The notes under the pieces were generated by a model that was given only the letters and a program-made list of their open reading frames with translations, was not told where the DNA came from and made no database searches. A DNA stretch of 64,000 nucleotides, taken from assembly GCA_963764795.1 (NCBI GenBank), contig CAVXTV010000002.1, positions 143,392 through 207,391 on the forward strand, written 5' to 3'. The stretch is from an uncultured Solirubrobacterales bacterium. Lineage in GTDB: Bacteria; Actinomycetota; Thermoleophilia; Solirubrobacterales; 70-9. Below are positions 1-58,384 of this stretch, in pieces (positions within the stretch are counted from its first letter, which is position 1; every line of letters begins with the position of its first letter). The translations under genes were made by a program, and so were the position numbers.

Positions 1-1
1 G

Positions 2-274
2 AGGGCACTTCTTGCAGTGCTCCCCCCCGGCCAGCTGGTCGCTTTTAACCGTCGCGCTGTCATCGAGCGAGCCGAGGCCGACCACGATGTCGTCATGCGC
101 ATCGTTGACTCGGTGCGTGATGTACTTCACGAGGCTTTGATGGTTGGCGACCGCGACCCACACGACTCTTGTTCCGTGCTCCCACGCGAGTTCGCAGAGG
201 CGCTGAGGGAAATCAGGGCAACGGACTCTGCGATCGACACATGGGCCGCGATGACGGGTCGCTGGCAGACTTAG
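2..274 (+). CDS. hypothetical protein, C-terminal part (frame open to left window edge)
   Basis: Track ORF 17..274. The same frame has no stop back to nt 2, and first codon positions are G-rich. No recognisable motif. The codon-aligned antisense frame is also open, so the strand call is weak. Confidence 0.3.
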   Translation, partial: RALLAVLPPGQLVAFNRRAVIERAEADHDVVMRIVDSVRDVLHEALMVGDRDPHDSCSVLPREFAEALREIRATDSAIDTWAAMTGRWQT

Positions 275-282
275 ATCACAAC

Positions 283-1218
283 CTACTTTTTAGACCGCTT
301 GACCTTTGGAGCCGGCGGTGTCCTCAGGAGCGTGACAATTGCTGCCCGTTCCTGGACATTGAAATCGGCTATCTCGGTCCACTCGGGCTCGAAGTTCGCG
401 AGTTCACTCACATCTAGGTTCTCGCACATTCGAGGGCGATCTAGGACCACTGCTGCCCGCCAATTCATCGTGTCCCAACTTGGCGAGTCGACCTCAACGG
501 CAAACGGGAATGCGAGTCCAATCTGGGGACCCTCACCGATGCGCAGTAGGTGCTTCCACTGAGACAGGGCGATGTCACTCGCCTTTCGCTCAAAGTTAAA
601 TCCGAGCGTGTTCTGAAAGAGGGTAACGGAAAAGGCTACGCCGCCGGAGGCAAATGGCTTCCATGCGACGATGTCCACTCCAGCATCCTTATCCTTGGGC
701 TTCAAGGTTTCAAGATTGCCCAAGGGTATCTTGGTGATCTCACTTATCCAGGGAAACGCGTCGATGAGCCGCTTTGGTCGGCCGTCTCGGGTGGGCCACC
801 CGAACCTGAGTGCATCCGTCCCAGTCCCGCCGTACTCCTTAGCGGCCTCTCGGACAAGTAGATCGAACAAGGGGTCGACGTCATTGAAGCGACTTTCTGA
901 TCGATAAGGTGCGATGCGCAGGGATATCAACGTGAGGAATTCGTAGACCCGACGATCAACGGCGCTGTTGAAGGTAATGACTTCGTTTTCTGAGATCGAA
1001 AATGGATAGCACTTGGGAGATGCCCCGGCGCGGTCTTTGAGCTCGTCGTAAAGAACCTCAACCTCGCTTGCATCTGGCTGGAAGTTGGTCGGAAAGCGTC
1101 GTTCGATTGATGCTCTTGAGAGTTCCTCGCGTTCCTCGAGGAACATCGTTTTCTCGACCCAATCGGCTAGCGCCCAGCGACCGACATCGGCCGGGAAATC
1201 CAGAATCTGACTAGCCAA
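283..1218 (-). CDS. hypothetical protein, partner of the ParB-like gene (nuclease-like core only suspected)
   Basis: Track ORF 283..1287. The likely start is the in-frame TTG at 1218, which overlaps the upstream stop (1211-1213) by 8 nt; an alternative ATG lies at 1146. Low-GC codon usage. The central segment KDAGVDIVAWKPF...VTLFQNT is reminiscent of a PD-(D/E)xK core but not diagnostic. Confidence 0.55.
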   Translation of the reverse strand: MASQILDFPADVGRWALADWVEKTMFLEEREELSRASIERRFPTNFQPDASEVEVLYDELKDRAGASPKCYPFSISENEVITFNSAVDRRVYEFLTLISLRIAPYRSESRFNDVDPLFDLLVREAAKEYGGTGTDALRFGWPTRDGRPKRLIDAFPWISEITKIPLGNLETLKPKDKDAGVDIVAWKPFASGGVAFSVTLFQNTLGFNFERKASDIALSQWKHLLRIGEGPQIGLAFPFAVEVDSPSWDTMNWRAAVVLDRPRMCENLDVSELANFEPEWTEIADFNVQERAAIVTLLRTPPAPKVKRSKK

Positions 1219-2320
1219 GATCTGAGGACTCGTAGTGCTCGAGGCACGCTTCAAGAGATTTGCGGGCCTCAGCGAGAGGCGCACCATCGCCGTTCATCTC
1301 TTTCTGGACGCGCTTAATAGAAGCTATCGATGAGCGGATGCTGCGCACGAGTGCGGAAATGGGGTCCACAGTCGATTGGCGGGCCGCCTCCAGATCGTTT
1401 GTGTCCTCGAGGATGGATAGGGCTTCTCGATCTTCGAGCACCCGACCCAAAGAGGTGATCTGCCGGGAATCCTGCACGACTTGCTCACCGTCCGCCCTTC
1501 CGTTTCTGGGAGGACCGAAGAGCCAAGTCGTCAATCGTGAGAGCTCCTCTTCCCGATCGTCAGGAAGTGGGAAGTAATTTTGATCGACGCCGCGAGGGGG
1601 AGGAGCGCCTATGTAGTCGCGAATCCCGGGATTTTGCATGGCCCTCGTGAAGACGCCGAAGTTGTCGGTGATACGGGCTGAGTCGCAAAGTCCCAGCTTC
1701 TCCTCGCCCTGCCGGCGAATCCAGTAGTTCCGGTAAAACGACCGCACCTCGGGCTCCCCGCGTGACAGCAAGGCGGCAACTTCCGCGAATGAGAGACCTT
1801 GGTCATCGACAAGGTCTGCGATGTACTTCGCTTGCGGAAGAGGAGCCCACGGTGCCGGCCGCGTTATGTGTCGAAAGCCCAAAATGGGTGCAGCCTGAGA
1901 GCGACTCTCAACAACAAGTACCGGGACATCGACCGGAACGTCGGCGTCCGCTGGAATCTCACGCCAACCTTTGGTAGGCAAGGTTGCGCGGATCTTCGGG
2001 TTGGCGAGGCCCTTTAGCGCGGCGAGTCGTCGATTTCCCTCCACCACGATGTAACGCCTTGGATTCCTTGGTTTTCCAGATTTGCCAAGGCTCGGTATTG
2101 CTACGAGCGGCTCGGCCTCGAAGTATCCGTGCCGAAGAATGGATTCGGCAATAGAGAAGACGTCGTAGACGCGGTCGAGGTATGGGAACAGCTCCGCGGG
2201 CTTGAGATCTTTGCGTTGCACCTCGGCGGGCAGTCTTGGATTCAGGGGATCTGGATCGAGTTCATCCAAGCGCAGCCTGGTGAGTTCTCCCCCAACTTTC
2301 ATGTCCGCCGTCTGAGCCAT
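1211..2320 (-). CDS. ParB N-terminal domain (ParB/Srx-fold) protein with HTH-like middle region
   Basis: 369-aa ORF with ATG start. Carries LDELDPDPLNPR...YIVVEGNRRLAALKG, which matches the ParB-box GxRR signature. No adjacent parA-type ATPase. Confidence 0.75.
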   Translation of the reverse strand: MAQTADMKVGGELTRLRLDELDPDPLNPRLPAEVQRKDLKPAELFPYLDRVYDVFSIAESILRHGYFEAEPLVAIPSLGKSGKPRNPRRYIVVEGNRRLAALKGLANPKIRATLPTKGWREIPADADVPVDVPVLVVESRSQAAPILGFRHITRPAPWAPLPQAKYIADLVDDQGLSFAEVAALLSRGEPEVRSFYRNYWIRRQGEEKLGLCDSARITDNFGVFTRAMQNPGIRDYIGAPPPRGVDQNYFPLPDDREEELSRLTTWLFGPPRNGRADGEQVVQDSRQITSLGRVLEDREALSILEDTNDLEAARQSTVDPISALVRSIRSSIASIKRVQKEMNGDGAPLAEARKSLEACLEHYESSDLG

Positions 2321-2669
2321 TTACGACATCCTAAGCATTGGAAACGAGCCGATCGAATATCGCTGGGCGCAGGTAGCGGCTCGCTCGGGAGAAGGTGCTG
2401 CGGTGGCACTCTGGTGTTCTGAGGATCTCCTGGTTCCTCAGAACGCGGCATTCGCTTTTGCGCGCCGAGCCACTTCGAAGATTGGCAGCCCGCGGGCGCT
2501 CGATGAGTCTGAGTCTCGGGGGCGACGTCCAGTGCCGCCGCTTCCCCTTCACGGCGAAGATCGTGCCCGCAGGAGTTCGGGTACTCGTGGGGCAACAAAT
2601 GGGGCAACACGCCCCACAGACCTCAGCCGATTCCAGCGGCCCTCGATCCCCTGAAAACCGCTGAAATCT

Positions 2670-2746
2670 GCCCCCACGTACCCCAGCCGATCGACGGGCT
2701 CGGGCTACGAAACCGAAGGTCACAGGTCCGAATCCTGTCTGGCGCG
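2670..2746 (+). pseudogene. tRNA-Arg(ACG)-like relic (no pairing acceptor stem)
   Basis: Anticodon arm TCGGG-CTACGAA-ACCGA at 2700-2716. Variable region AGGTC. T arm ACAGG-TCCGAAT-CCTGT at 2722-2738. 3' acceptor CTGGCGC plus G ends at 2746. The upstream 5' strand pairs at only 3-4 of 7 positions and the D loop lacks GG. Confidence 0.5.
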
Positions 2747-2852
2747 TTCCTTGGTGTTCCTCGGGAGGCTGCGCACTCCCGGTGCGCGCCGTTGTTTGGC
2801 CGCGTGGCTTTGTACTGCGCGCCAGCAGCTATCGCTATGTTCGAGCGGGCAG

Positions 2853-3263
2853 ATGGCCGACGATCCGACAATCCGCAAACGACTCGCGGCTGCCGTTTCC
2901 TACGCAACGATTTCCGGTGTCTGGATCTACGGGTCCCATAAGGAAGTAGGCGCCTTCCATACCGATGCTGCAGCCGTTTGCGTACTCGTACTTGGTGTCG
3001 CCGTTGGCGCCTACGTCCGCAGCTGGTGGATGCTTCTGTCGCTCGTGGGGCCGCTGATTACGCTTGGTTATCTCGAAGTCAGCGGCTTTGTTGGAACCAG
3101 TGACGATTGGGCGTCGGAGCCGCTGCTTTCACCGCCCGGAGTCTTCGTCTTCTTCATCTTCACGACGATCCTGATGATCGGCTATGCACTAGGGCAAGGA
3201 GCCGAATGGGTCGCGGAGGTTTGGAGGCGCAGGGATCGCGACGAGGAGTCGAAGCGCTGGTAG
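2853..3263 (+). CDS. hypothetical membrane protein
   Basis: Internal ATG of track ORF 2751..3263. Three to four hydrophobic helices (VCVLVLGVAVGAYV, MLLSLVGPLITLGYL, VFVFFIFTTILMIGYAL). Confidence 0.45.
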   Translation: MADDPTIRKRLAAAVSYATISGVWIYGSHKEVGAFHTDAAAVCVLVLGVAVGAYVRSWWMLLSLVGPLITLGYLEVSGFVGTSDDWASEPLLSPPGVFVFFIFTTILMIGYALGQGAEWVAEVWRRRDRDEESKRW

Positions 3264-4907: not shown

Positions 4908-5549
4908 GTGTCCCGGCTCAAGTTCCAGATCTCGGTATCGCTCGATGGCTTCGTCGCCGGCCCGAACCAGAGCGAGGAACACCCGCTTGGCGAAGGCGGC
5001 ATGGAGCTGCACGAGTGGGTGCTCAAGCTAGCCGCCTGGCGCAAGCCGCACGGCCGGGAGGGGGGAGAGGTCAACGCCAGCACTCCCATCTTCGAGGAGG
5101 CGACAGCCAACGTCGGCGCGACGATCATGGGGCGCGGCATGTTCGGTGGCGGTCCCGGCCCTTGGGGCGATCAGCCGTGGCAAGGCTGGTGGGGAGACGA
5201 GCCGCCTTTTCACCACCCGGTGTTCGTCTTGACCAATCACGAGCGCGAGCCGCTTGCGCTCGAGGGCACCACCTTTACCTTCGTCACCGATGGCATCGAG
5301 TCTGCGCTGGCCCAGGCCACAGAGGCAGCGGGTGGCGGGGACGTCGCGATCGGCGGCGGCGCCGAGGCGATCCAGCAGTACCTGGCGGCGGGCCTGGTCG
5401 ACGAGATGCTGCTCAACGTCGTTCCGGTCCTGCTCGGGGACGGCGCCCGTCTACTCGAGAATCTCGGTGCCGATCTCGACCTCGAGCAGGTTGAAGCAGT
5501 CGACGCGCCCGGTGTGGCGCACCTCAAGTACCGCCCGCGCCGCTCCTAG
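4908..5549 (+). CDS. dihydrofolate reductase family protein (RibD C-terminal domain type)
   Basis: 213 aa: KFQISVSLDGFVAGP...VFVLTNHEREP...IGGGAEAIQQYLAAGLVDEMLLNVVPVLLGDG. Confidence 0.8.
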   Translation: MSRLKFQISVSLDGFVAGPNQSEEHPLGEGGMELHEWVLKLAAWRKPHGREGGEVNASTPIFEEATANVGATIMGRGMFGGGPGPWGDQPWQGWWGDEPPFHHPVFVLTNHEREPLALEGTTFTFVTDGIESALAQATEAAGGGDVAIGGGAEAIQQYLAAGLVDEMLLNVVPVLLGDGARLLENLGADLDLEQVEAVDAPGVAHLKYRPRRS

Positions 5550-6146
5550 ACCTCGATCCAGGTGCCCTTCGGGCCGAGGTTGCGGACCGGCGTGTCGCCG
5601 ATCTGGCTCTCGCAGCCCCAGGACTCGTGGATGTGGCCGCAGACGGCCAGGCGCGGCGCCTTCTCCTCGATCGCTCGCAGCAGGGCGGGGCTGCCGAAGT
5701 GCATGTCGCCGCCGTTGCTGTCGCAGTGACCGCGCGGCGGCGAGTGGAGGACGAGGACGGCGTCGCTCGGGGCAGCGCGCGAGCATCGTCGCTCGCCGTC
5801 TCGTCGTCGAGGTCGAAGCTCCACTCCCACGGGGTGACCGGGATGCCGGCACCGAGACCGTAGAACTCGGTCCCGTCGATCGTCGTGCCGCTGCCGTGCA
5901 GGACCGTGGCCGCGCTCCAGCTCGCTGCGGCCTCGCGCAGCGCCTTGCTCGGTCTCGTTGTTGCCCGGGACCAGCACGGTCGGGGTCTCGATCGCAGCCA
6001 GCGCGTCGATCGTCTCGCCCAGGCCCTCGTGGACCGAGGCGAAGTCGCCGGCCCCGATCACGACGTCGGCCTTGGCCGACATCGTCGACCAGCTCGGCGG
6101 CCTGATCGAGGTCGCGGTGCAGGTCGCTGAAGGCGAGTAGTTTCAC
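5546..6146 (-). CDS. metallophosphoesterase, needs frame changes
   Basis: N-terminus VKLLAFSDLHRDLDQAAELVD in the frame of ORF 5451..6146. Then ADVVIGAGDFAS...VLVPGNNE and LVLHSPP...VCGHIHESWG in ORF 5546..6082, with an off-frame stretch between. Stop overlaps the convergent stop as CTAG. Confidence 0.65.
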
Positions 6147-6271
6147 CGGCCGAAATCTAGCTGGCGTCGCTCGGGGCCGCCGGCGTGTGTAACATCGCTT
6201 GCAGACGAAAAGTTTCGAACCTGTGACATTCAGCGCGCAACGGTTGCGGCCGACCGAGGCACACTGGAGGC

Positions 6272-6595
6272 ATGGAGGCGATGCGAGTGAATTGGACAGA
6301 CGACCGGCTGGGCGAGCGCTTCGACCGCATCGACGAACGTTTCGATCATGTCGAGAAACGCTTCGACCATGTTGACGAACGTTTCAAACAGGCTGAGGAG
6401 CAGGTGAACGAGCGTTTCAAGCTGGTCGATCATCGCTTTGATCGCGTCGAAACGGACCTTCGCGAGCTGCGCGTTGAAATGAAGGGCGGATTCGACAAGA
6501 TCGATGCTCGTTTCGACGCCATGCAGCGGACTCTCTTTTTGGCCGCGGCGGGCATTGTCGCCGCCCTGATCGGGGTGATCGCAACCCAGCTCTGA
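6272..6595 (+). CDS. tail-anchored coiled-coil protein with xRFDxVD heptad repeats
   Basis: 107 aa with eight or more consecutive heptads (ERFDRID, ERFDHVE, KRFDHVD, ERFKQAE, ...ARFDAMQ). Followed by one C-terminal TM helix LFLAAAGIVAALIGVIATQL. Confidence 0.65.
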   Translation: MEAMRVNWTDDRLGERFDRIDERFDHVEKRFDHVDERFKQAEEQVNERFKLVDHRFDRVETDLRELRVEMKGGFDKIDARFDAMQRTLFLAAAGIVAALIGVIATQL

Positions 6596-6599
6596 CGGC

Positions 6600-7499
6600 T
6601 CAGGCCTCGGCTGTCGCTGCTTTCCGCGGCAAACGCTCACGCCAGGGCCTCGCTGGCTCCTCCTCGGCTCGGACCCCGAGATCGAAGTAGAGCAGCGTGC
6701 GGCCGAGCGCCACGTAGGGGACGAGCAGGGCGAAGACGACCGAGCCGATCACGTTGATCCAGAGCAGTGAGAAGTTGGTGAAGATCAGGGTGAAGCCGAG
6801 TACCGGGCCGGCGGCGATGCTGAGCAGCCAGAAGAAGCCGAGGACGCGGACGGTGTGCCACCAGCGGCCGCGCACCCGGTCGGAGCTGGCGCGGAAGGCG
6901 TCACGGATGCCCTTGTCCCCGATCAAGATCTCCTGCTGGACGAACTGCCAGCAGACAAACTTGTAGATCGCGACGGGGATGCCGATCACGGTGATGACGA
7001 GAGCGAAGGCGCCCACGTACGGCAGCAGCGACCCCGCAGCGACGCGCCAGAAGCGACGCAGCATTCCGCGCCAGGAGTCGAGGAAGCCCATGCCGCCGGT
7101 CTCGACCAGCAGGCGTACGGCGACGATCACCACAGCGGCGACGAGCGCCCCGGCGATCGGCTGTCCGAGCGATTCGATTGTGTCGGCGAGGGCGAGGTGG
7201 GCGCCGGCACGACCGGTGGCGTTATCGACGCCGCGCTGGCCTGCGATCAGGGCGGCAAGGCCGCGCACGGCGCCGACGAGCACCAGCGCGCTCAGCCCGA
7301 TCGGCACCATCGTCCGCCAGTGGCGGCCGTAGAGCTGCCGCGCCGCGCGCACGATCTGGCCGAAGGCGCGGCGCCGGCGCAGCTCGGTCAGGTCGACCGG
7401 GCCCCACCTGGTCACGCCGACGAAGAGGATCAGCAGCAGCGCCGGGATCGCGATCATTGCGATCGCCGCCGGCCGGGAGCGCGACTCGAGGTTGATCAC
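6600..7499 (-). CDS. polytopic membrane protein, function unknown
   Basis: 299 aa with about 6 TM helices. Its GTG start overlaps a stop in the upstream gene frame (GTGA). Confidence 0.6.
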   Translation of the reverse strand: MINLESRSRPAAIAMIAIPALLLILFVGVTRWGPVDLTELRRRRAFGQIVRAARQLYGRHWRTMVPIGLSALVLVGAVRGLAALIAGQRGVDNATGRAGAHLALADTIESLGQPIAGALVAAVVIVAVRLLVETGGMGFLDSWRGMLRRFWRVAAGSLLPYVGAFALVITVIGIPVAIYKFVCWQFVQQEILIGDKGIRDAFRASSDRVRGRWWHTVRVLGFFWLLSIAAGPVLGFTLIFTNFSLLWINVIGSVVFALLVPYVALGRTLLYFDLGVRAEEEPARPWRERLPRKAATAEA

Positions 7500-8530
7500 G
7501 TCGGAGACCGTGGCGACGGCGCCGCAGAAGGCGCCGCTGACGGCGGGCCCGGCGAACGAGCCGCCCGGCAGCTCGCGGGCTGGTCGAGCGCTGCTTTTCC
7601 ATCCAGGCGAACGGTTCGAGCCATGCTGTCTTCGTCAGCGGGCCGGTCGGCCCGTTGTTGAAGCCCTTCTCCTTCTCGCCCCAGTGGCCGAAGTAGGTGA
7701 GCCACTTGAACCGGCCAGTAGTGGTCGGAAAGGTCGGGATCGCAACCGGGTGGACTCGCAGTTCGCGCAGCGGTTCGCTGGTGTTGTCGCAGCCGACGCC
7801 GGAGCCGTTCTGACCCGTTCTGGACGTAGACGGTCGAGTCGTAGAAGGTCGCGTGCGAGCCAGCGGCCGGGTAGACGACCGGGTGCGTTCCTTCCTTCTC
7901 GCACCTTCGAGTCTTCCCAGTCGGCCCGCTCGCCGCCGGCGTGCTGGAAGAGGATCATTTCGCTCGGGTCTTCGGCCAGCGCCTGCCGTGCGTTGCCCGC
8001 TTCGAAGGCGATCTGCATCCCCTCCCAGTCGCCCTCGTGCAGGTCGTTGAACTGGTTGAAGTACCAGAAGAACCAGTACTGGACGACGAAGCCCGGGTGG
8101 CCCGACCTGACGGGCGATGTGGGCGTAGGTGATCGGCGGCGCTTTGCCTTCCGTCTTCAGCTTTGCGAAGTCGCGCGCGTAGACGCAGGTGTCGCCAAGC
8201 GGATCGCCGTGCAGGTCGAGGTGGAAGGGGTCGCCGAGCCCGGCGATGTCGGCGGCGGTCGGCGCCCGCTTGATCGCCTCTTCCTTGCCGCCTTCTTCGA
8301 CCCGCTTGAGCGTCGACCGACGGGTTGCCGAGCACGGTCGAGACGCTGGTCGGCTCGTACTGCTCGGCCGAGGTTTCACAGGGCGGGTCCTGCTCTTCGC
8401 GCAGCATCGTGATCGGTGTGTAAGCGTCGATCAGCCGCTGGGCCGCGGTGGACGCGATGGCTGTCGGTGGTTGACCGAGCAGTGCGACCGCGACGAGCAG
8501 AGGGACGAGACGAAGAACCCGGGCAGTCAC
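7498..8530 (-). CDS. secreted Vps62-like protein (YWFFWYFNQFNDLHEGDWEG motif), several frame changes
   Basis: Signal peptide from GTG 8530 (VTARVLRLVPLLVAVALLGQPPTAIA). Pieces lie in track ORFs 7955..8566, 7222..8379 and 7635..8018, plus an unlisted frame. The 3' end is uncertain. Confidence 0.5.
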
Positions 8531-8558
8531 GCCCGGCAACGTAAGGCAGAACCAGGTG

Positions 8559-8605
8559 AGGTGCAACGCATTACAGCTCGCTCAGAGCCGTAAAACGTTT
8601 CACCG
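8559..8605 (+). repeat. 47-nt hairpin element, family B copy a
   Basis: AGGTGCAACG-N27-CGTTTCAC. Same architecture and spacing as the copies at 29776 and 56198. Confidence 0.55.
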
Positions 8606-8612
8606 CTGGTCG

Positions 8613-10071
8613 CTAGAACGCTGGATCGCCCTCCGCCACCTGCTCTTCGACCTTGCCCGACTGCATCGTCGCCACGGCGACGACGAAGGCGAGCGCCATC
8701 ACGCCGGCCATCGCGTAGAAGACCGTCTGCGTGGCGAGCGCGAAGTCGTGGGGGATGTTGTCGACCACCTTGGCGAGCGCACCGCTGACGTGCGCGGGCG
8801 CTTGCAGCCGGCGCCGCTGCCTTGGCTGATCGCGTCGGCGATTTCGTCGGCGGCCGCCTTCGGCAGGCCGTGGGTGCTCGCCGTCGACTCGAGGTTCGAC
8901 TTGTTCTGCAGGATCAGGACCGTGCCGAGCACCGCCAGGCCGAGGCTCGAGCCGAAGTTACGCACAGTCTGTGTGATCCCGGTCGCTTCGCCGTAGCGGT
9001 TGGCGGGCACGCGGTTGAGTGCGTCGGTGTTGGCCGGGCTGAGCACCAGGCCGACCCCGGCTCCGGCGAGGACGATGTAGTACCACTGCGAGCTGACCGA
9101 GAGGTCGGGCAGCGAGTGCGCCCAGAGGCCGAAGCCGACGGTGGCCACCGCGCAGCCCAGCACCACCGGCGCGCCGGGCTCCCGCTTTGTCGAGCATCCG
9201 CCCGCCCCACTGCGAGGCCGTGGCGAAGCCGGCGAAGAAGATCAGCAGGTAGAGGCCGGTTTCCGAGGCGCTTTCGCCGAGCGAGATCTGCGCGTACATG
9301 CTGGCGAAGAAGAAGAGCGGGATGAAGGGGATCATCAGCAGGAAGAGGATCGCGTTGTCCGACCGCGAAGGCGCGGTCGTCGAAGATCCGCACCTGGATC
9401 AGCGGGTTCTCGATTCGCAGCTCGTAGAGGACGAAGGCGGCGAGGACCGCGACGCCGGCGGCGATGCAGATCCAGGTGATTGGGTTGCCCCAGCCCCAGA
9501 CGCTCGACTGCTGCAGGCCGAGCACGGCGAGGCCCATGCCGCCGGATACGAGCGCCGCGCCGCGGTAGTCGAGCGGCGCAGGGTGCTTGGTGTTCTCCGG
9601 CTTGGCGATCGCGGTGAGGACGAGGGCGATGATCGCCACCGGGATGTTGACCCAGAAGATCGTCCGCCAGCTGATTTCGACCAGGTAGCCGCCGGCGAGC
9701 GGGCCGATCGAGGTCAGGCCGCCGGTGATCGCGAAGAAGATCGCCAGGGCGCGGCCGCGCTCGTGCACCGGGAAGGCGCCGAGGACGATCGCCAGCGCCG
9801 CCGGGAACATGATCGCCGCGCCGGCGCCCTGGATCATGCGGAAGGTGATGATCCAGGCCTCGTCGAGACTGCCGGTCGGGGTGGCGCCGCAGAGTGCCGA
9901 GGCGGTGGCGAAGACGATCACGCCGAGCACGACCATGCTGCGGTGGCCGGCGATGTCGGCGATGCGGCCGCCGAACGCGAAGAGCGCCGAAAGCGAGAGC
10001 AGGTAGCCGTTGACGATCCACTGCACCCCGGTCGAGGAGAGCGAGAGATCGTTCTGCAGGCCGCTCTCCAT
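8613..10071 (-). pseudogene. DHA2 (EmrB/QacA-type) MFS transporter, 5'-truncated and frameshifted
   Basis: Starts at LQNDLSLSSTGVQWIVNGYLLS (loop 1-2/TM2). No TM1 is found in any frame upstream. Pieces lie in ORFs 8914..10215, 8958..9335 and 8699..9166. The C-terminus ...VFYAMAGVMALAFVVAVATMQ ends at TAG 8613. Confidence 0.65.
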
Positions 10072-10352
10072 GCTCGTCCGCTTTGCCAAGAGGCCGCCAA
10101 ATCCTCCCCGTTCGATAGTCTCCCGGCGCTGATGCCGGACGTATTTCTGGATCGGAGTGGTTCTCGCTGGCGCGATCTTCCTGATCAGCGTGATCTCGTC
10201 GATGCGCTCGCGCACGACCAGCGTCGCCGCCGGCGCCGCGATGGGCGTCTACCTCGGCGTCATGCTGGCCTTCCCGCTGCTTGCCATCGGGCTCGCCTCC
10301 AGCTAGCTCAGCACCCCGCGTAGGCTCGGTCTCAGCGGGTAGTTGAGCGGCT

Positions 10353-11180
10353 ATGACGATCCCCCGCCTCACCCTCCACGACGGCGTCGAGATTCCCCAG
10401 CTGGGGTTTGGCGTCTTCCAGGTCCCGCCCGATGACACCCAGGAGGTCGTCGAGCAGGCGCTCGACCTCGGCTACCGCCACATCGACACCGCCGGCGCCT
10501 ACCGCAACGAGAAGGGCGTCGGTGCGGCGATCGCCGCCTCGGGACTCGCCCGCGAGGACCTCTTCGTCACGACCAAGCTGTGGAACTCCGAGCAGGGCTT
10601 CGACTCGACCCTGGCTGCCTTCGAGGCGAGCCTCGGCCGGCTCGGCTTCGAGTACGTCGACCTCTACCTGATCCACTGGCCGGTGCCGACCGAGGACCGC
10701 TTCGTCGATACCTGGCGCGCCTTCGAACGCATCCACGGGGAAGGCCGGGCGCGCACGATCGGGGTCTCCAACTTCCGCGTCGAGGACCTCGAGCGGCTGG
10801 AGGCGGAGACCGACGCCCGGCCGACCGTGAACCAGATCGAGCTCCACCCGCGCCTTCAGCAGGCCGAGCTGCGTGCCTGGCACGCCGATCACGGGGTCGT
10901 CACCGAGGCCTGGAGCCCGCTCGCCCAGGGCGAGCTGCTCGACGACGAGACGATCGTCGCGATCGCCGAGCGCCACGGCAAGACCCCCGCCCAGGCGGTC
11001 CTGCGCTGGCACCTGCAGCTGGGCAACGTGGTCTTCCCCAAGTCGGTGACGCCAGCGCGGATCCGCGAGAACATCGAGCTCTTCGATTTCGAGTTGAGCG
11101 ACGCCGAGATGGCCGAATTCGAGAGACTCGACCGCGGTGAGCGCATCGGCCCAGACCCGGGGACTTTCGTCTCGCCGTAG
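10353..11180 (+). CDS. aldo/keto reductase (2,5-diketo-D-gluconate reductase-like)
   Basis: 275 aa intact: GFGVFQVPPDDT...GYRHIDTAGAYRNE...LYLIHWP...IPKSVTPARIRENI. Confidence 0.9.
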   Translation: MTIPRLTLHDGVEIPQLGFGVFQVPPDDTQEVVEQALDLGYRHIDTAGAYRNEKGVGAAIAASGLAREDLFVTTKLWNSEQGFDSTLAAFEASLGRLGFEYVDLYLIHWPVPTEDRFVDTWRAFERIHGEGRARTIGVSNFRVEDLERLEAETDARPTVNQIELHPRLQQAELRAWHADHGVVTEAWSPLAQGELLDDETIVAIAERHGKTPAQAVLRWHLQLGNVVFPKSVTPARIRENIELFDFELSDAEMAEFERLDRGERIGPDPGTFVSP

Positions 11181-11802
11181 TGCGCTGGTCAACGCTGTTG
11201 CCGCGACCGCGTTCCTGATCGGCGGCTCGCTCTTCGCCCTCGGTGCGGCCCTGGCGCAGGCAGGCGTCACCCCGACCGCCTGCGCCTCGATCTACCTGGT
11301 CGGTGGCGTCTTCTTCAGCACCGGTGGCTACACCTCGGTCGTCCAGGTTCGCGGTGAGCCGCGCCTGCAACGGGCGAGCGCGGTGGTCCTCTTCGCCGGC
11401 ACGATCGTCTTCGCGATCAACCTGATCGACTCGTTCATCCAGGAACTCACCCCGGCCGCCTTCGATCGCCTCGTCTGGTCACCGGACATGGTCGGCTGCG
11501 CGCTCTTCCTCATCTCCGGCCACCTGGCGATGGCCGGGATCGCGGGTCGCTTCTGGCGCGTCTGGCACCGCCGCGACCTCGGCTGGTGGATCATCGCCGT
11601 CAACCAGCTCGGCTCGGTCCTCTTCATGGTCTCCGCCGTCGCCACCTTCGTGCGCCCCTCCTCGGGCGACATGCTGGCCACCGGCATCGCCAACTGGGGC
11701 ACCCTGCTTGGCGCTCTCTGCTTCGCGATCGCCGGCCTGATGCAGGAGTTCGAGCATCCGCTCGGCCCGCGCCGGCGCCGCGATCAGCCCTCAGCGGCCT
11801 GA
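11137..11802 (+). CDS. hypothetical membrane protein
   Basis: 221 aa with 6 predicted helices. The start is uncertain, because the only in-frame start overlaps the AKR gene by 44 nt. Confidence 0.5.
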   Translation: MSASAQTRGLSSRRSALVNAVAATAFLIGGSLFALGAALAQAGVTPTACASIYLVGGVFFSTGGYTSVVQVRGEPRLQRASAVVLFAGTIVFAINLIDSFIQELTPAAFDRLVWSPDMVGCALFLISGHLAMAGIAGRFWRVWHRRDLGWWIIAVNQLGSVLFMVSAVATFVRPSSGDMLATGIANWGTLLGALCFAIAGLMQEFEHPLGPRRRRDQPSAA

Positions 11803-12986
11803 GGGCGGCGCAGGCGGTGGCGGCCCTCGCCGTAGAGGCGGGTCTCGTAGGCGATCAAGACCCAGATCAGCACGTTGACGAAGGCCAGCGCCACCAGGGC
11901 CGGGACCTGGGTCGCCACCGGGACCAGGATCAGCAGGACGATCGCCAGCAGCAGGCGGCGGCGATTGACGGTGTGGACATGGCGGTAGCGAAAGCCGACG
12001 TGGCCCAGCAGGTAGACGGCGAGGCCGCCGAGCAGGGCAAAGGCGGGAACCGTGTGGAGGTGGGCGCCGGTGTGGCCGATCGTCAGCTTCAGGCCGAGGG
12101 CGACGAGGACGATGCCGGCGACCATCACCAGGTGGAGGTAGGAGTAGGAATCGCGGGCCATCTCGTTCTGCACCCGGCCGACCTCCGCCTCGGCCAGGCG
12201 TTTGCCGGAGACGATCGCGACGACGTCGAAGTAGATCCACCACATCGCTGCGGTCAGCGCCACGCCGAGCACGGCGGCGGTGCCGATCGCCAGCGTCAGC
12301 TCGTGTGAGGCGCCGACGCCGATCGCGACGATCGACTCGCCGAGGGCGATGATCACGATCAGGCCGTGGCGCTCGGCGAAGTGCGCCGGCATCAGTTTCC
12401 AGCCTTCCGAGCCGAAGAAGTACGGCCCGGCCATGTCGAGGAAGAGGGCTAGGGCCCAGAGGGCGCCCTGGGCGAGGCCGTCGAAGAGCGAGGCCAGGGC
12501 AAGCAGCGTGACCGCGACCAGGGTGCTGGCGGCAAGGCCCAGGACCGAGTGGCGCAGCGCGTCGTCCTCGGGGCTGGCGAGCATGAAGAGAGCGATCTGC
12601 GCGCTGCGCACCACGCCGTAGATCAGGGCGAAGGCGAGGCCCAGCTCGCCAAACGCCTCCGGCACGCAGAGCGAGACCAGCAGCAGCGCCGCCATCGCCC
12701 CGAACATCACCAGGCGCACCGCGCCCTCCTCGGGGTCGATCACGCTGGTCAGCCAGGAGTAGCCGGTCCAGGCCCACCAGAGCATGCCGAGCACGAGCAG
12801 TCCCTGGGCGATGCCGGACCAAGTCGGGTGGTGGGACATCAATGCCGTGCACTGGGTTATCGCCAGGACGAAGACGAGGTCGAAGAAGAGCTCGAGCGGC
12901 GTTACTCGCTCGCCTTCGCGCAGCGTCGTGCCGAGCCGGGACCCTCCTGTTTCGTCACTGGCGGCCATTCCCCGCCATCTTCTCAA
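11784..12986 (-). CDS. low temperature requirement protein A (LtrA) family membrane protein
   Basis: 400 aa: VTPLELFFDLVFVLAITQ signature, about 10 TM helices. TTG start overlaps the upstream MFS stop (TTGA); an alternative ATG lies at 12968. Confidence 0.8.
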   Translation of the reverse strand: MRRWRGMAASDETGGSRLGTTLREGERVTPLELFFDLVFVLAITQCTALMSHHPTWSGIAQGLLVLGMLWWAWTGYSWLTSVIDPEEGAVRLVMFGAMAALLLVSLCVPEAFGELGLAFALIYGVVRSAQIALFMLASPEDDALRHSVLGLAASTLVAVTLLALASLFDGLAQGALWALALFLDMAGPYFFGSEGWKLMPAHFAERHGLIVIIALGESIVAIGVGASHELTLAIGTAAVLGVALTAAMWWIYFDVVAIVSGKRLAEAEVGRVQNEMARDSYSYLHLVMVAGIVLVALGLKLTIGHTGAHLHTVPAFALLGGLAVYLLGHVGFRYRHVHTVNRRRLLLAIVLLILVPVATQVPALVALAFVNVLIWVLIAYETRLYGEGRHRLRRPQAAEG

Positions 12987-14622: not shown

Positions 14623-15636
14623 ATGAGCCGGATGGCTGAGGAGCGCAAACGCCCCGAGGCGCCGCGCAGCGAGAAGGTCCTGCCGGGCATCTGGCGACTG
14701 CGCCTCGCCCTGCCCTGGCCCGGCGTGCCGCACGGCAACGTCTGGGCGATCGAGGCCGACGGCGGCATCGTCCTCTTCGATACCGGCATCGGCGGCAAGG
14801 GCCGCATGCGCCAGTTCGACCTCGCCCTCGCCGGGGCCGGCTTCGGCCTCGAGGACGTGAAGCTGCTCGTCTGCACCCACTCCCACACCGACCACTACGG
14901 GCTGGCGGCGCCGATCGTCGAGGGCGCCGGCTGCGAGCTCTGGATGCACCCCGCCTGGGAGCACGTGCGCCTGCTCGCCGACGACCCGGCGGCGGCGCTC
15001 GAGCAGCGGCTCGAGGTGGCGCGGCAGAGCGGCGTCCCGGTTGCCGGGCTCGAACGCTACCGGGACGCGCAGCGACAACAGTGACAACGGCATCGACGCG
15101 ATCGTCGAGCCCGACCTTGACCTCCTCCCCGGGGTCGAGGTGGAGACCGACCTCGGCACCTGGCAGGTCTACGAGACGCCCGGCCACGCGCCCTCGCACG
15201 TCGTCCTGCACCAGCCTGAGCGCAAATTGATGATCTCCGGCGATCACCTGCTCGGCCGCACGGTGCTCTTCTTCGACCACGGCCACAGCCCCGACCCGAT
15301 CGGCGAGTTCCTCGGCAGCCTCGAGCGGGTCGAGCCGCTCGAGGTCGACCTCTGCCTGCCCGGCCACGGCCGGCCCTTCCGCGATCCCGAAAGCCAAGAT
15401 CGCCGAGGCGCGGCGGCAGGTCGCCGAGCTGCTGGAGAAGACCCGCGATGCGCTCGGCGAGGGGGAGAGGACCGCCTTTGAGATCGTCGCCGAGATCGTC
15501 GGCGCCGAGAACGTCAACACCCCGGTCAGCGCCTGGGTCCTGCAGATCGTCCTCTCCTGCCTCGACCACATGGTGATCGAGGGCGAAGTGTCCAAGGTCG
15601 ACGGGACTGACCCCCAACGATGGAAGCTGGGCTGAG
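14623..15636 (+). CDS. MBL-fold metallo-hydrolase, two frame changes
   Basis: THSHTDHYG motif in ORF 14623..15084 and ETPGHAPSHV in ORF 15041..15481. The C-terminus ...VLSCLDHMVIEGEVSKV is in a third frame and ends at 15636. Confidence 0.7.
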
Positions 15637-56065: not shown

Positions 56066-56070
56066 GTGAG

Positions 56071-56160
56071 CGGAGAGGGTGGGATTCGAACCCACGAGGC
56101 GGGTTAACCCCGCCCACGCGATTTCCAATCGCGCTCCTTAAGCCACTCGGACACCTCTCC
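56071..56160 (-). tRNA. tRNA-Ser (anticodon GGA)
   Basis: Minus strand reads GGAGAGGTGTCCGAGTGG...CGCGA-TTGGAAA-TCGCG, then a long variable arm GGGCGGGGTTAACCCGCCTC and T arm GTGGGTTCGAATCCCAC. The acceptor pairs 7/7. No encoded CCA. Confidence 0.9.
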
Positions 56161-58284: not shown

Positions 58285-58371
58285 GGAGGGGTGCCGGAGT
58301 GGTTGAACGGGGCAGTCTCGAAAACTGTTGGCGTCGCAAGGCGCTCGTGGGTTCGAATCCCACCCCCTCCG
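58285..58371 (+). tRNA. tRNA-Ser (anticodon CGA)
   Basis: GGAGGGGTGCCGGAGTGG...GCAGT-CTCGAAA-ACTGT, long variable arm, T arm GTGGGTTCGAATCCCAC, acceptor 7/7. Confidence 0.9.
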
Positions 58372-58384
58372 CTTTGCGAGTCGG

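Follow-up and report, generated by a model that had tools for sequence, protein, structure and literature searches.

Restriction-modification (R-M) is the oldest known form of bacterial immunity, and to our knowledge all of its nucleoside triphosphate (NTP)-dependent forms use helicase-like or AAA+ motors. NTPases of the ParB superfamily are known in company with HNH nucleases (GmrSD, SspE); in GmrS/GmrD the DUF262 NTPase and the DUF1524 HNH nuclease can be separate polypeptides, as are the two proteins described here, and KorB also works with a small partner protein. The pair that concerns us lies at positions 283-2320 of a 64,000-nucleotide (nt) stretch of DNA from an uncultured Solirubrobacterales bacterium (GenBank assembly GCA_963764795.1, contig CAVXTV010000002.1, positions 143,392 to 207,391; this whole stretch is hereafter ‘the window’). 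It consists of a ParB-like gene, which we name B, and a partner gene, N; we use M for a DNA methyltransferase, and labels of the type L001 for homologous loci that we fetched. We infer that B and N probably form the restriction, i.e., DNA-cutting, module of a methyltransferase-linked defence system. Such a system is most likely of the R-M kind, with a restriction module not described before.

Several described systems come close. CglI and NgoAVII are NTP-dependent R-M systems made up of a C5 methyltransferase, an R nuclease subunit and a DEAD-Z1 motor subunit (PMC4267653, PMC5861437); both are ATP-dependent restriction enzymes whose H subunit carries Z1 as its motor domain (PMC4267653, PMC5861437). 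In PD-lambda-5 (Vassallo et al. 2022), a ParB-type domain is tied to DNA methylation and defence in a system termed ‘RM+Abi’ (R-M plus abortive infection), and the system was cloned in a host in which the mrr region is deleted (PMC9519451). Comparative-genomic surveys have already noted ParB-fold domains in R-M contexts (PMC4738411), and the ParB fold binds CTP, ATP or GTP depending on the family (PMC12704722). Our full-text literature searches found no description of a system that joins a ParB/KorB-like protein, a winged-helix-PD-(D/E)xK protein and a methyltransferase, and the ParB-fold survey and the DEAD-Z1 paper, searched by term, make no mention of one. On a RefSeq plasmid, B and N are both annotated as ‘hypothetical protein’, next to a ‘Z1 domain-containing protein’ and a ‘PD-(D/E)XK motif protein’.

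The gene pair in the window is laid out as follows:

Positions 2320 to 1211, minus strand: gene B, ParB/KorB/Noc-like, 369 amino acids (aa), with an ATG start and a TAG stop at 1213-1211.
Positions 1218 to 283, minus strand: gene N, the partner, 311 aa, with a TTG start at 1218-1216.
Positions 1211 to 1218, minus strand: the B/N junction, an 8-nt overlap of the B stop with the N TTG start, which the sequence suggests to be a translational-coupling junction.

These coordinates agree with an earlier note on this DNA, which had described two same-strand genes that overlap by 8 nt, and the motifs which that note quoted (LDELDPDPLNPR, YIVVEGNRRLAALKG, KDAGVDIVAWKPF and VTLFQNT) are all present in the translations of the open reading frames (ORFs). 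The N ORF is already open from an ATG at 1287; judged by the N-termini of the homologues, which begin just ahead of a conserved ‘LDxP’ motif, the fitting start is TTG 1218, and in contigs near-identical to the window N is likewise called from the position of TTG 1218. Scans of nt 1-3000 for promoters and terminators returned nothing above chance level.

The first body of evidence is the constancy of the pair. Using the B profile alone, we fetched 80 loci from species-representative genomes (one per species; the best-scoring 80 of 528 confirmed relatives), and in 74 of them an N-family ORF lies directly downstream of B on the same strand, a co-conservation whose absence the earlier note would have counted against the pair; two of the six loci that have no adjacent N are contig ends. 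When loci were seeded from N, B was found upstream in every testable one. Elsewhere, too, B and N mostly overlap (by 1-29 nt) or are separated by no more than 11 nt, and the recurrence of start/stop overlap in nearly all homologous loci bears out the suggestion of translational coupling. Pairwise identities of B and N covary strongly (Spearman 0.71), and conservation is similar in all domains of both proteins, with no hypervariable specificity domain. The hosts belong to at least 13 phyla, among them Actinomycetota, Chloroflexota, Planctomycetota, Acidobacteriota, Pseudomonadota, Poribacteria, Patescibacteria, Bacteroidota and Nitrospirota. An exhaustive search with a hidden Markov model (HMM) gave 3174 cluster representatives (50% identity) of the N family at E ≤ 1e-3, and 866 at E ≤ 1e-30. 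The idea that N belongs to a very rare family, which arose from a word-indexed search that returned 10 homologues, was discarded as a sensitivity artefact: a profile search gave 103 proteins, and then the 3174 representatives. A viral origin of the pair also appears unlikely, given three hits in 2.9 million viral contigs and weak fold matches in BFVD.

The second body of evidence is the methyltransferase. We clustered the neighbouring ORFs over 84 loci, and one family that occurs in 72 of these is that of the C5 cytosine DNA methyltransferase (PF00145). Distances measured with an HMM of this family in the 77 pair-bearing loci place such an enzyme within 100 nt of the pair in 39 loci; the count rises to 51 at 500 nt, 65 at 3 kb and 73 at 10 kb. 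Among the 39 loci in which it lies closest, 34 have the enzyme on the strand of the pair, in the order M>B>N> or B>N>M>, and the genes often overlap by 4 nt. Of the four loci that have no C5 enzyme, two possess an N6_N4 methyltransferase (PF01555), encoded on the same strand some 150 nt upstream; at the family level, then, the linkage to a methyltransferase that characterizes R-M is present, through a C5 enzyme in 73 of the 77 loci and an N6_N4 enzyme in two more. The N6_N4 methyltransferase stands in place of the C5 enzyme upstream of B in loci from Poribacteria (L071, 8885-9856; L090, 8902-9855; L080, 8138-9109), so the B-N module is not tied to 5-methylcytosine (m5C) chemistry. The pair, which the earlier note put forward as a candidate new system, is not a free-standing set of two genes: a methyltransferase accompanies it within 10 kb in nearly all loci and, in the contigs near-identical to ours, it lies just outside the stretch that the window covers.

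Other neighbours recur as well. Vsr, which repairs m5C deamination, is encoded in 38 of the 77 loci. A Z1-domain protein is encoded upstream of B in 26 of the 77, mostly in Actinomycetota, and its gene usually runs a few nt into the start of B. Loci of this actinobacterial type, Z1>B>N>, frequently have behind N a small conserved gene (about 105 aa) that in many cases overlaps it by 4 nt (L020, L022, L024, L027-L029, L031 and L035-L037, at about 11.9-12.3 kb in each locus); its product has no Pfam match and may be a fourth subunit. Another recurrent block of neighbours is HATPase_c_3 - Z1 - DUF4420, and the wider neighbourhoods hold genes of defence islands: AbiE, NERD, MutH-like, HNH, NACHT, Vsr and EcoRV-like. 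The earlier note saw no adjacent parA and no evident role in partition; in keeping with this, no parA-like gene is adjacent to the pair in the window, and no parA-like family is among the 25 most frequent neighbour families over the 84 loci.

Individual loci add some detail. In L034 (Nocardioides), two convergent B-N pairs (4930-6998 and 10400-12385) surround one C5 methyltransferase and a vsr gene, and one of these two pairs has a Z1 gene. One Cellulomonas genome holds two separate B-N copies (L021 and L031). L002 and L003 (compared at 7610-8890 and 8174-8530, respectively) represent the same defence island on two metagenome contigs, only one of which has a C5 methyltransferase directly upstream of B; the contig that lacks this enzyme has short ORFs instead, and it retains a further methyltransferase on the downstream side of a MutH-like gene. 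In L010, a locus of the order B>N>V>M>, the methyltransferase has beside it a gene for MTaX1 (methylase-associated X1, PF20296; 3881-5050, minus strand), which represents another uncharacterised methylase-linked family. There is one clear orphan, L049 from the Planctomycetota, in which B-N (9968-12033) comes directly after dnaG and rpoD; a 301-aa ORF on the minus strand, with no Pfam match, is situated just downstream of this pair.

Protein B has an NTP-binding N-terminal domain, a helix-turn-helix (HTH) at residues ~160-207 and a helical C-terminal region. Its AlphaFold2 (AF2) model, with a predicted local distance difference test score (pLDDT) of 90.8, matches CDP- or CTP-bound ParB, KorB, Noc and Spo0J in Foldseek over 260-300 columns (probability 1.0, E 8e-6 to 1e-4), and the match spans both the nucleotide-binding N-domain and the HTH. 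An hhalign comparison of the B profile with a hand-entered sequence of Bacillus subtilis Spo0J gave a probability of 89% and an E of 2e-6; in this alignment, VVEGNRRLAAL of B is paired with IVAGERRFRAA of Spo0J, SI..HG..EPL with Box I, and the HTH is matched too. The ParB N-domain and HTH that the earlier note recognised are therefore well founded. The Box I-like motif of B is S60..G65..E70-P71 and its P-motif is E94-G95-N96-R97-R98; E94-R98 are invariant across 107 B homologues, as are H151, W158, G269, S285 and R286. B thus possesses the nucleotide-binding fold, Box I and Box II/P-motif by which the ParB/Srx superfamily is recognised at the fold level, and its fold indicates that it most likely binds an NTP.

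Family-level searches are more reticent. A Pfam scan of B and N at E ≤ 1 returned no match, with ParBc, DUF262 and DUF1524 all included in the scan, and NCBIfam offered for B only a sub-threshold ParB (TIGR00180, 13.6 bits against a cut-off of 58.45). Among 120 B homologues listed, a precomputed PF02195 hit is attached to just one, and B itself falls short of the curated cut-offs of the partition-ParB families TIGR00180 and PF02195. The remaining matches of B are to PHROG 3694 (E 3e-41) and, in PADLOC, to PD-Lambda-5_A (through the N-terminal domain) and PDC-M38A. Searches of B and N against PDB sequences, with single sequences and with profiles, gave nothing meaningful, and PHROGs yielded only families of unknown function.

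With the CTP-dependent clamps ParB, KorB and Noc, B shares the fold of the NTP-binding domain, the HTH, and the conserved residues of the Box I-like motif and the P-motif (GxRR). It differs from them in that its P-motif is EGNRR rather than GERR, in having additional conserved sequence in its middle and C-terminal parts (G269, S285, R286), in the failure of the family-level models and in the lack of a parA or parS context; its obligate partner, moreover, is a predicted nuclease. The earlier note had instead looked to the DndB and DUF262 (GmrSD, SspE) branch, a likeness that does not survive: judged by its model, B is a canonical-type relative of ParB/KorB/Noc, not a member of the DUF262/DndB branch, and Pfam detects neither DUF262 nor DUF1524. 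GmrSD, BrxU and SspE (for SspE: PMC13251355) do also combine, for defence, a nuclease with a nucleotide-binding protein of the ParB superfamily, and in this B and N, as a predicted defence pair, are like them. However, the combination of DUF262 (PF03235) with DUF1524/HNH that marks GmrSD, SspE and DndB is absent: B and N have neither a DUF262 (DGQQR/DGQHR) nor a DUF1524 signature, B is ParB/KorB/Noc-like and carries an HTH, and N is of PD-(D/E)xK type whereas their nuclease is HNH. Those systems, furthermore, target modified or phosphorothioate-marked DNA, and they are not in an operon with a protective methyltransferase.

The relationship with PD-lambda-5, and with the PADLOC candidate PDC-M38, is restricted to one domain. 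All 107 B homologues match the PD-Lambda-5_A and PDC-M38A models; in the window protein, the PD-Lambda-5_A match covers the ParB N-domain only (residues 16-151, or to 191 for one model), and of the 715 positions of the PDC-M38A profile only 87-364 align. B has no methyltransferase domain, the methyltransferase being a separate gene, and N matches no PD-Lambda-5_B, so that neither the ParB-methyltransferase fusion (A) nor the cognate B protein of PD-lambda-5 is present. We considered whether the pair might itself be PD-lambda-5, and rejected this identity, since the alignment is limited to the ParB domain and none of the PADLOC models fits N.

For protein N, which the earlier note could assign to no family, sequence comparison gave no assignment either: there was no match in Pfam, NCBIfam or PDB sequences, and none of the PADLOC models matched N or its 101 relatives (102 members in all). 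A match to a housekeeping family, which the earlier note would have taken as evidence against its proposal, was not among the results of these searches. The AF2 model of N is confident (pLDDT 93.7, predicted template-modelling score (pTM) 0.92) and predicts a winged-helix-like domain at ~14-100, followed at ~108-260 by a nuclease domain of PD-(D/E)xK type. The N-terminal unit has the order helix-strand-helix-helix-strand-strand, and both this order and weak fold hits to winged-helix proteins suggest that it is a winged helix. The core of the model has the alpha-beta-beta-beta-alpha-beta arrangement (helix 108-129, strands 135-138, 183-186 and 198-203, helix 209-215, strand 232-236) that typifies the restriction-endonuclease-like fold of the PD-(D/E)xK superfamily. 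Its top PDB fold match is MspJI (E 1.4e-3, probability 1.0, TM about 0.3, 13% identity), and its further fold matches (VC1899, NgoMIV, BsaWI, Can2/Card1, NucS/EndoMS, SgrAI and Bse634I) are all PD-(D/E)xK nucleases. The best matches of the model, with MspJI, NgoMIV, BsaWI and NucS among them, thus strengthen what the earlier note offered only as a hint of a PD-(D/E)xK core.

Candidate catalytic residues of N are D119 (mostly Glu in the family), D178, D182, Q202 and K212. Across 102 N homologues, D178, D182, R63, Y92, R261 and R263 are invariant, position 119 is almost always acidic, and K212 is likewise nearly invariant; these residues make an active site plausible, albeit non-canonical. N resembles MspJI and Mrr-type PD-(D/Q)xK enzymes in that MspJI is its best structural match, in having an N-terminal DNA-reading domain ahead of a C-terminal nuclease, and in the Gln at the strand-3 position of the window protein. 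This likeness exists at the level of the fold only: the N-terminal domain of N is a winged helix and not SRA-like, the strand-3 lysine is absent and K212 lies in the next helix, and N is linked both with B and with a methyltransferase.

Taken as a whole, the gene set is also close to CglI/NgoAVII, which likewise comprise three genes centred on a C5 methyltransferase and divide the restriction enzyme into an NTP-using and a nuclease subunit; the Z1 protein encoded upstream of B in some homologous loci is a further resemblance. The proteins are nevertheless different. N is a winged helix joined to PD-(D/E)xK, whereas the CglI/NgoAVII nuclease is PLD plus B3-like; the NTP-binding subunit B has a ParB fold, whereas theirs is a superfamily 2 (SF2) helicase. 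Neither the DEAD-Z1 motor nor the PLD/B3 R-subunit that defines those enzymes is present at our locus: there is no Z1 gene in the window, nor in L004, its close relative.

An obligate pair, a near-constant and often coupled methyltransferase, and a methyltransferase type that can change: this combination fits the logic of R-M, in which methylation protects and B plus N would restrict. We hypothesize the following course of events. M would mark the host's own DNA; a dimer of B would bind an NTP (CTP or ATP) and engage, or clamp, unmethylated incoming DNA; B would then recruit or license N, and N would cleave. The vsr gene that is often carried too would serve to repair m5C deamination. Bearing in mind that B and N have no hypervariable domain, and yet are accompanied by very diverse methyltransferases, M may supply specificity both for the site and for its methylation state. 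That M itself recognises the site and its methylation state, by analogy with Type I, Type III and BREX-like systems, is speculative; it would fit with the N-domain of B, which is most similar to ParB domains that form part of a methyltransferase fusion in PD-lambda-5_A (PMC9519451), and we count in the same direction a report that ParB-like proteins activate phage DNA-modifying dioxygenases on double-stranded DNA (PMC13229309). A bolder version, which we put forward tentatively and regard as possible rather than probable, is that the system represents a new class of NTP-dependent R-M. A ParB/KorB-like, nucleotide-gated clamp, loaded at or near unmethylated sites (possibly by M as the specificity or sensor subunit), would take the place that helicases or AAA+ motors have in Type I, Type III, ISP and McrBC enzymes, would license a winged-helix-PD-(D/E)xK nuclease, and would plug into systems with C5 or N4/N6 methyltransferases and with Z1 motors.

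Several observations weigh against regarding B and N as the restriction module of a methyltransferase-linked system. The covariation of M with either B or N is weak (Spearman 0.26-0.30), and a single conserved nuclease pair that matches many methylation specificities, while having no variable specificity domain of its own, is unlike the simple Type II picture. About a quarter of the loci, including the close relative of the window, hold another putative nuclease module (SacI-like, or HATPase_c_3-Z1-DUF4420), and the methyltransferase in those loci might belong to that other module. L049 has no methyltransferase within 10 kb, and the window itself does not include the methyltransferase of its genome. 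N has no canonical strand-3 (D/E)xK: the window protein has Q-N-T there and most members have H/Q-C-A, while the conserved K212 is placed in the helix that follows strand 3. Finally, the nuclease function, the binding of NTP and the protection by methylation are all predictions.

Other explanations for the pair were weighed as well. The best of these, which we nevertheless consider unlikely, is a free-standing, modification-dependent (Type IV) pair akin to GmrS/GmrD: the ParB/Srx-fold NTPase would sense modified foreign DNA, the nuclease would cut it, and the methyltransferases would be no more than neighbours in the island. MspJI, the best fold match of N, is a modification-dependent enzyme, and N in the window has Gln at the MspJI/Mrr-type position; the layout of a ParB-superfamily NTPase with a separate nuclease parallels that of GmrS/GmrD, and several loci already hold another complete-looking restriction enzyme for the methyltransferase to serve. 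Mere neighbours, however, would hardly be expected to lie within 100 nt of the pair in half of the loci (39 of 77), in most cases sharing its strand and often so close that stop and start codons overlap, nor to be replaced by an N6/N4 enzyme where the C5 enzyme is absent; only one or two of the 77 loci have no methyltransferase, and Pfam gives no DUF262 or DUF1524 signal.

Also improbable, in our estimation, is an accessory or regulatory module for the methyltransferase, with B as a ParB-like activator or loader, or a controller of R-M expression, and N as a repair or nicking enzyme that deals with methylation-associated damage. The same precedents that we cited for M as a source of specificity lend themselves to this interpretation, namely the ParB-like activators of phage dioxygenases (PMC13229309) and the methyltransferase-fused ParB domains of PD-lambda-5_A (PMC9519451), as does the frequent coexistence of the pair with another nuclease module. 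Yet B coevolves with N and not with M, and it is to N that B is translationally coupled; N has kept its nuclease-type constellation of acidic residues and lysine over some 3000 clusters; repair of m5C deamination is already covered by Vsr; and there are minimal M-B-N operons in which no other nuclease is present.

Those minimal operons also bear on a third explanation, that B and N act as a pair of abortive-infection or toxin-type effectors, set off by an attack on the linked R-M system or by its loss, which is the ‘RM+Abi’ logic proposed for PD-lambda-5. The published account of PD-lambda-5 calls it a compacted RM+Abi system, its A protein has the ParB domain in common with B, and B-N has frequently been added to loci that already had a restriction module. 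Minimal M-B-N operons, in contrast, hold no separate restriction enzyme to back up, and N matches neither PD-Lambda-5_B nor any other PADLOC model; we hold this explanation to be quite improbable. Partition or maintenance of an integrated element, by a ParB acting on a centromere-like site with an accessory protein, can be dismissed as very improbable: B does have a ParB fold, an HTH and, from its model, a probable dimerising C-terminus, and it sits on an acquired island, but parA-like families are missing from the frequent neighbours, TIGR00180 is missed by a wide score and Pfam ParBc altogether, the loci are chromosomal R-M and defence neighbourhoods, and the obligate partner has a nuclease fold.

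If B and N are indeed the restriction module of a methyltransferase-linked system, the ParB CTPase-type switch would be extended from chromosome segregation and gene silencing into immunity, and a mechanistically distinct class would be added to the restriction enzymes. Both families are large and yet ‘hypothetical’ in Pfam, NCBIfam, PADLOC and RefSeq, and so are missed by the current annotators of defence systems. Should N prove to be site-specific or methylation-sensitive, it might also find use as a reagent.

We turn now to the setting of the pair in the window, where two further features flank it:

Positions 1 to 274, plus strand: 3' end of a gene for a SacI-like restriction endonuclease; it is convergent with N and was identified by collinearity with L004.
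Positions 2678 to 2739 (roughly 2672-2748), plus strand: decayed tRNA-Arg(ACG)-like remnant, identified from the Rfam tRNA model and the G+C boundary.

The reverse complement of the window is collinear with L004 up to window position 1, and the end of the SacI-like gene is only 8 nt from the stop codon of N. The 366-aa protein encoded in L004 matches Pfam RE_SacI (E 1.4e-9, 38.8 bits against a cut-off of 19.3). In contigs that are 97-98% identical to the window, B>N> is followed by the convergent SacI-like endonuclease, Vsr and the C5 methyltransferase. From these close relatives, we expect the methyltransferase of our locus to lie just to the left of the window, together with the SacI-like endonuclease and Vsr; the linkage to R-M at the window locus itself is accordingly known by proxy only, through those contigs. 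The SacI-like enzyme may provide a second restriction activity that uses the same methyltransferase as B-N at this locus.

The composition of the cassette sets it apart from the rest of the window. Its G+C content is 57.1%, as compared to 69.1% for nt 3000-64000 (a 12-point drop), and the G+C content at third codon positions is 0.63 in both B and N versus 0.84 in a flanking gene. The earlier note had counted by hand 57 G+C in nt 601-700 and 74 in nt 14701-14800, and both counts are exact; its description of foreign DNA beside a tRNA remnant is also sustained, the tRNA-Arg-like element being situated 357 nt upstream of the start of B. The Rfam tRNA model gives this element 24.8 bits (E 0.068, model positions 7-64), against a gathering score of 29, and ARAGORN made no call for it in the window; an ACG anticodon loop is present. 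Because the Rfam score is sub-threshold and ARAGORN is silent, ‘decayed’ is a fair label for this tRNA-Arg copy. The remnant is the probable edge of an acquired island, and we place the B-N pair at the distal end of a low-G+C R-M island that abuts it; an integrase, an intact tRNA and a repeat to match the remnant, if the island has them, would have to be beyond the window.

Integrative elements usually duplicate just the 3' part of a tRNA. The remnant here seems near-complete in length, with an intact T-arm and a broken D-arm and acceptor stem, and it may be a decaying, displaced copy of the gene. The sole tRNAs that ARAGORN called in the window are two intact tRNA-Ser genes on opposite strands, about 2 kb apart, at 56070-56160 (minus strand, anticodon GGA) and 58285-58372 (plus strand, anticodon CGA).

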